Shown piece after piece: positions 60,555 to 62,238 of a DNA stretch of 64,000 nt. The notes under the pieces were generated by a model that was given only the letters and a program-made list of their open reading frames with translations, did no database searches and had not been told where the DNA came from. The stretch comes from Escherichia coli (GTDB lineage Bacteria; Pseudomonadota; Gammaproteobacteria; Enterobacterales; Enterobacteriaceae). Location of the stretch: the NCBI RefSeq assembly GCF_013122565.1, contig NZ_CP053258.1; one strand, 5' to 3'. The translations under genes and the position numbers were made by a program. Position 1 is the first letter of the stretch, and every line of letters starts with the position of its first letter.

Positions 60555-60567
60555 CCAGGAGGTTTAT

Positions 60568-62238
60568 TTGCAATTTGACTACATCATTATTGGTGCCGGC
60601 TCAGCCGGCAACGTTCTCGCTACCCGTCTGACTGAAGATCCGAATACCTCCGTGCTGCTGCTTGAAGCGGGCGGCCCGGACTATCGCTTTGACTTCCGCA
60701 CCCAGATGCCCGCTGCCCTGGCATTCCCGCTACAGGGTAAACGCTACAACTGGGCCTATGAAACGGAACCTGAACCGTTTATGAATAACCGCCGCATGGA
60801 GTGCGGACGCGGTAAAGGTCTGGGCGGATCGTCGCTGATCAACGGCATGTGCTACATCCGTGGCAATGCGCTGGATCTCGATAACTGGGCGCAAGAACCC
60901 GGTCTGGAGAACTGGAGCTACCTCGACTGCCTGCCCTACTACCGCAAGGCCGAGACGCGCGATATTGGTGAAAATGACTACCACGGCGGCGACGGCCCGG
61001 TGAGCGTCACCACCTCCAAACCCGGCGTCAATCCGTTGTTTGAAGCGATGATTGAAGCGGGCGTGCAGGCGGGCTACCCGCGCACGGACGATCTCAACGG
61101 TTATCAGCAGGAAGGTTTTGGTCCGATGGATCGCACCGTCACGCCGCAGGGCCGTCGCGCCAGTACCGCGCGCGGTTATCTCGATCAGGCCAAATCGCGC
61201 CCTAACCTGACCATTCGTACTCACGCTATGACCGATCACATCATTTTTGACGGCAAACGCGCGGTGGGCGTCGAGTGGCAGGAAGGCGACAGCACCATTC
61301 CAACCCGCGCAACGGCCAACAAAGAAGTGTTGTTATGTGCAGGCGCGATTGCCTCACCGCAGATCCTGCAACGCTCCGGCGTCGGCAACGCTGAACTGCT
61401 GGCGGAGTTTGATATTCCGCTGGTGCATGATTTACCCGGCGTCGGCGAAAATCTTCAGGATCATCTGGAGATGTATCTGCAATATGAGTGCAAAGAACCG
61501 GTTTCCCTCTACCCTGCCCTGCAGTGGTGGAATCAGCCGAAAATCGGTGCGGAGTGGCTGTTTGGCGGCACCGGCGTTGGTGCCAGCAACCACTTTGAGG
61601 CGGGCGGATTTATCCGCAGCCGCGATGAATTTGCGTGGCCGAATATTCAGTACCATTTCCTGCCAGTGGCGATTAACTATAACGGCTCGAATGCAGTGAA
61701 AGAGCACGGCTTCCAGTGCCACGTCGGATCGATGCGCTCGCCAAGCCGTGGGCATGTGCGGATTAAATCCCGCGACCCGCACCAGCATCCGGCAATTCTG
61801 TTTAACTACATGTCGCACGAACAGGACTGGCAGGAATTCCGCGATGCAATTCGCATCACCCGCGAGATCATGCATCAACCCGCGCTGGATCAGTATCGTG
61901 GCCGCGAAATCAGCCCCGGTGTCGAATGCCAGACGGATGAGCAGCTCGATGAGTTCGTGCGTAATCACGCCGAAACCGCCTTCCATCCGTGCGGTACCTG
62001 CAAAATGGGCTACGACGAGATGTCCGTGGTTGACGGCGAAGGCCGCGTACACGGGCTGGAAGGCCTGCGCGTGGTGGATGCGTCAATTATGCCGCAGATT
62101 ATCACCGGCAATTTGAACGCCACGACGATTATGATTGGCGAGAAAATAGCGGATATGATTCGTGGACAGGAAGCGCTGCCGAGGAGCACGGCGGGATATT
62201 TTGTGGCAAATGGGATGCCGGTGAGAGCGAAAAAATGA
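60568..62238 (+). CDS. betA: Choline dehydrogenase (GMC oxidoreductase)
   Basis: 556 aa starting at TTG ([24 protein letters not shown] fold); AGGAGG SD 5 nt upstream of the TTG; no in-frame ATG between the SD and the FAD motif. Confidence 0.9.

Follow-up and report, generated by a model that had tools for sequence, protein, structure and literature searches.

The bet locus of Escherichia coli raises the question of how the gene for choline dehydrogenase, betA, comes to be read from a UUG codon, and what that codon says about how much of the enzyme is made. The stretch of DNA analyzed here, referred to below as the window, is 64,000 nucleotides long and carries the locus in the following arrangement.

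56319–58352, minus strand: betT, choline transporter, divergently transcribed (open reading frame and annotation).
58481–59068, plus strand: betI, repressor, first gene of the betIBA operon (K-12 annotation, 588 nt; sequence read).
59066–59084, plus strand: betI-betB junction, TAA-CC-GAGGAG-ACGTG-ATG (sequence read).
59082–60554, plus strand: betB, betaine-aldehyde dehydrogenase (annotation; PRK13252 at 917 bits over residues 1–490).
60568–62238, plus strand: betA, choline dehydrogenase, 556 codons and a stop (TIGR01810, Pfam, K-12 length).

This gene order, betT on one strand and betI-betB-betA on the other, agrees with that of annotated E. coli loci. BetA scores 1035.1 bits against the NCBIfam equivalog TIGR01810 (cut-off 732.1), with residues 4–537 aligned to profile positions 1–532, and its residues 1–555 align to positions 4–557 of the 563 in PRK02106. 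It also comprises the two Pfam domains GMC_oxred_N (PF00732, 217 bits) and GMC_oxred_C (PF05199, 141 bits). We identify the protein as a choline dehydrogenase and infer its choline-oxidizing activity from the small number of amino-acid differences, four, that separate it from K-12 BetA. The 556-residue protein beginning MQFDY is, we assume, UniProt P17444, a sequence that presumably dates to the original sequence of the bet locus, reportedly that of Lamark et al. in 1991. Beyond betA, positions 62239–64000 lack the ykgH of K-12 and match strains in which a helix-turn-helix protein, an aldo/keto reductase and fdeC are encoded. Among 5426 complete genomes the highest identity is only 98.4%, so the strain of the window is not closely represented in that set.

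The features that define the start of betA lie within a short region spanning the end of betB.

60508–60510, plus strand: TGA that closes the betA frame upstream (sequence read).
60523–60525, plus strand: TTG in the betA frame, inside betB, rejected as the start.
60552–60554, plus strand: TAA that ends betB, separated from the betA start by 13 nt.
60557–60562, plus strand: AGGAGG, Shine-Dalgarno (SD) sequence of betA, 5 nt upstream of the TTG and 2 nt after the betB TAA.
60563–60567, plus strand: U-rich spacer TTTAT between the SD and the betA start (direct read).
60568–60570, plus strand: TTG, UUG initiation codon of betA (direct read; K-12 and RefSeq annotation; orthologues; INRI-seq peak).
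60583–60609, plus strand: FAD-binding GxGxxG motif IIIGAGSAG, BetA residues 6–14 (translation), which sets the latest possible start.

The 3′ end of betB reads CAG TCC ATA TTC TAA, followed by CC and then by AGGAGG. The codons after the betA TTG are CAA TTT GAC TAC ATC ATT ATT GGT GCC GGC TCA GCC GGC, and the N terminus predicted from this start is (f)Met-QFDYIIIGAGSAGNVLATR. Between the TGA at 60508–60510 and position 60568, the only ATG, GTG or TTG in the betA frame is the TTG at 60523, whereas the next canonical in-frame starts downstream, a GTG at codon 29 and an ATG at codon 47, both fall past the GxGxxG motif. The preliminary description of this DNA had placed the start at TTG 60568, 5 nt after AGGAGG, and had reported that the frame offers no ATG and, upstream, only TTG 60523 without an SD; the sequence read bears out both statements, and annotation, orthologues and initiation data agree on the position of the start.

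Pairing of the betA SD with the anti-SD sequence ACCUCCUUA gives a computed duplex energy of −11.0 kcal/mol. The site thus combines an SD complementary to the anti-SD with a functional 5-nt spacing from a canonical TTG, as found at SD-dependent initiation sites. The hexamer alone is not rarer than chance, with 11 copies of AGGAGG in the window against 16.2 ± 3.7 expected; it gains its weight from where it lies and from being conserved between genera, rather than from its occurrence. The stop codon of betB also lies close to the SD and start of betA, with a gap of 13 nt that is conserved at 13–14 nt, as in translationally coupled gene pairs. The betI-betB and betB-betA junctions are alike (TAA-CC-GAGGAG-ACGTG-ATG and TAA-CC-AGGAGG-TTTAT-TTG, both with gaps of 13 nt), and this likeness suggests a coupling module repeated along the three cistrons, with a non-ATG codon at the last of the three starts only.

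Initiation at this codon has been captured in a published cell-free experiment. INRI-seq translates a pool of synthetic templates in vitro in the presence of retapamulin (Hör et al., 2022; PMC9825163). Each template spans −30 to +153 of one MG1655 gene, and a start is counted as identified when a footprint peak lies 12–18 nt from the annotated start codon (PMC9825163). The 183-nt betA template is 100% identical to positions 60538–60720 of the window, so the betA result transfers directly to the sequence studied here. The values for the four bet genes (PMC9825163, Table S2 for betA), with K-12 coordinates and strands, are as follows.

betA (b0311), start 327247, minus strand: INRI-seq 104.8, 89.4, 84.6, 69.7 and 91.3 CPM; identified, TRUE; template 55.6 CPM.
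betB (b0312), start 328733, minus strand: INRI-seq 29–52 CPM; identified, TRUE; template 97.3 CPM.
betI (b0313), start 329334, minus strand: INRI-seq 0; identified, FALSE; template 84.7 CPM.
betT (b0314), start 329463, plus strand: INRI-seq 30–58 CPM; identified, TRUE; template 1007 CPM.

The betA TTG gives a peak in five of five replicates and stands above the betB ATG, despite the scarcer betA template (PMC9825163). This bears on the claim, made earlier from the non-ATG codon, that translation of betA is inefficient. A cell-free peak of 70–105 CPM at the TTG against 29–52 CPM at the betB ATG does not support that expectation, with the proviso that the height of a retapamulin peak reflects the rate of initiation only roughly. 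The same data show that the betA site can initiate in the cell-free system without translation of betB; with a leader of 30 nt, the templates bear neither on TTG 60523 (at −45) nor on coupling to betB. For betA that table also quotes an in vivo Ribo-RET value of 0, since the operon was not expressed under those conditions.

Two further reading frames begin near the betA start. The TTG at 60575, in the +1 frame and 12 nt beyond the SD, begins an ORF of 18 codons that runs to 60631, and an ATT at 60566 begins one of 21 codons. A peak from TTG 60575 would fall outside the 12–18 nt window and therefore cannot explain the betA signal. Since Table S3 of the INRI-seq study lists no alternative betA initiation site between −30 and +153 (PMC9825163), both short ORFs appear to be unused. 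The portion of the N-terminomics table of PMC13245402 that was examined holds no b0311 entry. As a separate observation, betI has a second in-frame ATG at 58463, and its annotated ATG follows 18 nt downstream, at 58481; in INRI-seq its annotated start is without a peak and no alternative site is listed, with both ATGs included in the template. The K-12 BetI protein record has reached version 3, possibly a sign that its start was once revised.

Could translation nevertheless begin elsewhere, or the TTG itself be an artifact? Initiation at TTG 60523 would add a 15-residue N-terminal extension encoded inside betB. The frame is open from 60511, which makes this codon a formal candidate, and its position places it beyond detection by INRI-seq, whose templates begin at −30. 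It nevertheless has no upstream SD, and no annotation uses it. Klebsiella, Raoultella, Citrobacter amalonaticus/sedlakii and all ATG-type orthologues lack an in-frame start at this place, which excludes it as a conserved start. The 15 extra residues would also lie outside every BetA/GMC profile: position 1 of GMC_oxred_N falls at residue 3 when counted from TTG 60568 and at residue 18 when counted from TTG 60523. We therefore regard an upstream start as very improbable. Initiation downstream, at a rare start (the ATC or ATT codons 6–8), the GTG of codon 29 or the ATG of codon 47, is extremely improbable. These codons are present in frame, but they lie inside or after the FAD-binding strand, such that translation from them would leave the Rossmann motif incomplete; they lie 20 nt or more from the SD, and the −30 to +153 region covered by INRI-seq shows no alternative betA site (PMC9825163).

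The remaining objection to the codon, that it is a sequencing error or a mutation of ATG in this strain, has in its favor only the general rarity of TTG starts, used by about 3% of E. coli genes (bioRxiv 10.1101/063800). Against it stands the rest of the species. In K-12 MG1655, betA (b0311, NP_414845.1; 325577–327247, minus strand) has a junction identical to that of the window (TAACCAGGAGGTTTATTTGCAATTTGAC), together with an annotated TTG start, 556 codons and the same betT / betI-betB-betA order. The two betA genes differ at 43 nucleotides and 4 amino acids, none of them at the start site. PGAP annotations of one close and one divergent strain also begin betA at the identical TTG. Among 5426 complete E. 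coli genomes, the betB-betA junction was found in 5179 genomes (5183 records). The 58-mer at 60540–60597 is identical in 5128 of these records. A shorter 39-mer that includes the TTG (60540–60578) matched 5149, all exactly except for one with a single mismatch, in which the change lies inside betB and the TTG is kept. In a further 27 records, among them EPEC E2348/69, the sole difference is a synonymous TTC>TTT change in the last betB codon. The betA TTG is thus carried by at least 5176 of the 5183 records, and a 58-mer with ATG or GTG substituted at the start has no exact match in any of them. Records this numerous, with no ATG or GTG version among them, exclude both a sequencing error and a strain-specific mutation, and the same start recurs in more than 30 other species; we consider an artifact vanishingly improbable. 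The preliminary description had proposed comparison with the betA start of reference genomes, and K-12 b0311 and the PGAP annotations do begin at the identical TTG; its framing of the effect as one "in this strain" does not hold, given the presence of the same TTG in essentially all E. coli and in many genera of Enterobacteriaceae. We also note that 247 of the 5426 genomes contain no match to the junction, and that ten junction copies are plasmid-borne.

Our scan of other species, with one genome taken per species, yielded 80 betA loci. All 80 have a start at the homologous codon or no more than 1–2 codons away, as TTG in 33 and ATG in 47. In Enterobacterales it precedes the D of DY(I/V)I(I/V)G by 9 nt, and in most Pseudomonas and Moraxella by 12–15 nt. 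The TTG group comprises Pseudocitrobacter, Enterobacter spp., Huaxiibacter, Lelliottia, Leclercia, the Klebsiella oxytoca group, Raoultella and Citrobacter amalonaticus/sedlakii. The ATG group comprises Trabulsiella, Pluralibacter, Cedecea, Pantoea, Kosakonia cowanii, Rosenbergiella, Tatumella, Pseudomonas and Moraxella. The ATG-start orthologues encode the same enzyme at 78–90% identity, but with a weaker average SD and a longer, more variable gap after betB. One Pantoea copy, from Pantoea sp. SOD02 (locus L040), resides on a 927-kb plasmid.

Within the TTG group, the spacer differs between genera (tttat, ttttt, tcattt, tttca, tctca), whereas GGAGG and TTG are constant. GGAGG is present in 34 of 34 TTG-type sequences, each with an SD/anti-SD energy of −11.0 kcal/mol, and the TTG lies 13–14 nt after the betB stop in the 31 in which the end of betB was located. 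In ATG-type Enterobacterales the SD averages −8.9 kcal/mol (−5.2 to −12.1) with gaps of 12–28 nt, and in Pseudomonas and Moraxella it averages −6.6 kcal/mol with much longer gaps. This pattern resembles that of canonical SD-led UUG sites in E. coli. A strong SD is commoner among UUG and GUG genes, and for UUG genes the counts are 959 strong against 392 weak (p = 1.6e-10 against AUG; PMC5622118). Compared with a typical E. coli UUG site, betA has an SD at the strong end and a preceding stop only 13 nt away. The pairing of TTG with a strong SD in the orthologues goes back to essentially one evolutionary origin, however, and so does not amount to statistical evidence of compensation.

A neighbor-joining tree of BetA proteins places all TTG sequences in one clade with the ATG-start Trabulsiella and Pluralibacter nested inside it. 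The simplest history would be one ATG>TTG change followed by two reversions. Those in Trabulsiella (L030, L046) and Pluralibacter (L031) look independent, with spacers and SDs unlike the TTG type (cggaggtgcaATG, gagggggatgaATG). Of 199 four-fold degenerate sites, just 8 are the same in all 34 TTG sequences, so the TTG lineage is old enough for its free sites to have turned over. At four-fold sites of betA, Pseudocitrobacter vendiensis (L004) diverges from the window by 0.24 and E. coli AST85 (L003) by 0.23. Another genus is therefore no farther away than a divergent E. coli, which would mean either horizontal transfer of the bet locus or a place for AST85 in a divergent Escherichia lineage; the betA of AST85 is annotated 6 codons longer at the 3′ end. 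The comparative picture, of a betA TTG that is clade-wide and long-lived in core Enterobacteriaceae and always accompanied by a strong SD and a short gap, with ATG in more distant orthologues, is a modest addition to what was known of the locus.

The RNA around the start is unexceptional. A 100-nt fold at the betA start has an energy of −25.6 kcal/mol (z = −1.18), with the SD and start mostly open in the centroid, and this fold contains no unusual structure that would occlude the site. No Rfam family was found in 56000–64000 at E ≤ 1. We also considered a weak internal σ70-like promoter match at 60523–60552, which agrees with 9 of 12 consensus positions (TTGAGA, a 16–18 nt spacer, and CATATT or TATTCT) and whose transcript would begin inside or just before the betA SD. 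The region contains 7 such matches against 3.8 ± 1.9 in shuffled sequence, and the candidate was rejected as probably due to chance.

Considered together, these data make it highly likely that betA, third in line on the betI-betB-betA mRNA, is translated from the UUG at 60568, and that this codon is an inherited state and an efficient initiator. In such a model the AGGAGG, 5 nt from the UUG and 2 nt past the betB stop, would recruit 30S subunits directly, and ribosomes ending on betB, 13 nt away, would probably reuse the site through translational coupling. The strong SD and short gap may offset the weaker UUG and so allow efficient initiation. The UUG itself would have arisen in the ancestor of the core Enterobacteriaceae and is now essentially fixed in E. 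coli. The betA TTG and its SD are, as such, an ordinary and already annotated feature correctly read, and suggest nothing new in biology.

A different account of the same codon is that selection maintains it, holding BetA below the level that an AUG would give or making its synthesis condition-dependent. A possible benefit is that BetA kept at or below BetB would prevent the accumulation of toxic betaine aldehyde. Tuned translation of betA is plausible on general grounds, as UUG is the weaker codon and weaker starts tend to have strong SDs; in reporters, initiation from AUG, GUG and UUG together spans 10–100% of that from AUG (bioRxiv 10.1101/063800). The TTG is kept in 34 of the 37 clade sequences, a persistence to be set beside the few invariant four-fold sites and the near fixation of TTG in E. 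coli. AUG is generally favored and AUG-to-UUG switches are selected against, which makes a long-lived UUG somewhat unexpected (PMC5622118). A precedent exists in the GTG start of lacI, which has been demonstrated to be adaptive (PMC11445065). Fitch parsimony over the 37-sequence clade assigns 2 changes to the first base of the start codon, whereas 193 four-fold sites have a median of 7. However, 11% of four-fold sites changed twice or less, so that this slow-down, which hints at constraint, is not significant. Both changes go to ATG, in Trabulsiella and Pluralibacter inside the clade. A simple model in which BetA is kept low also conflicts with the cell-free data, in which the UUG site initiates more strongly than the betB AUG, and our literature search on the betA TTG start and on betA start-codon mutants returned nothing relevant. 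We therefore regard adaptive tuning as unlikely. Its more specific form is distinctly doubtful. It would have the UUG under stabilizing selection since the ancestor of Escherichia, Enterobacter, Klebsiella and Citrobacter, acting together with the GGAGG and the 13–14 nt gap to set the BetA:BetB ratio or a sensitivity to initiation factors or ionic conditions in osmotic stress.

For annotation, the practical consequence of reading betA from its inherited UUG is that a mechanical ORF call from 60523 is wrong and the reference start at 60568 is right. The lacI GTG and the betA TTG are both non-ATG starts, conserved across Enterobacteriaceae, at inducible metabolic loci (PMC11445065). They differ in that lacI encodes a repressor for which the fitness effect of GTG against ATG has been measured, whereas betA encodes an enzyme with strong initiation in vitro, and its start is known from sequence and cell-free data. 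The clade-wide, long-lived TTG makes betA a convenient natural case for asking whether the non-ATG start of an enzyme gene is selected or merely tolerated, and a stabilized betA UUG, if real, would be the enzyme-level counterpart of the adaptive lacI GTG.
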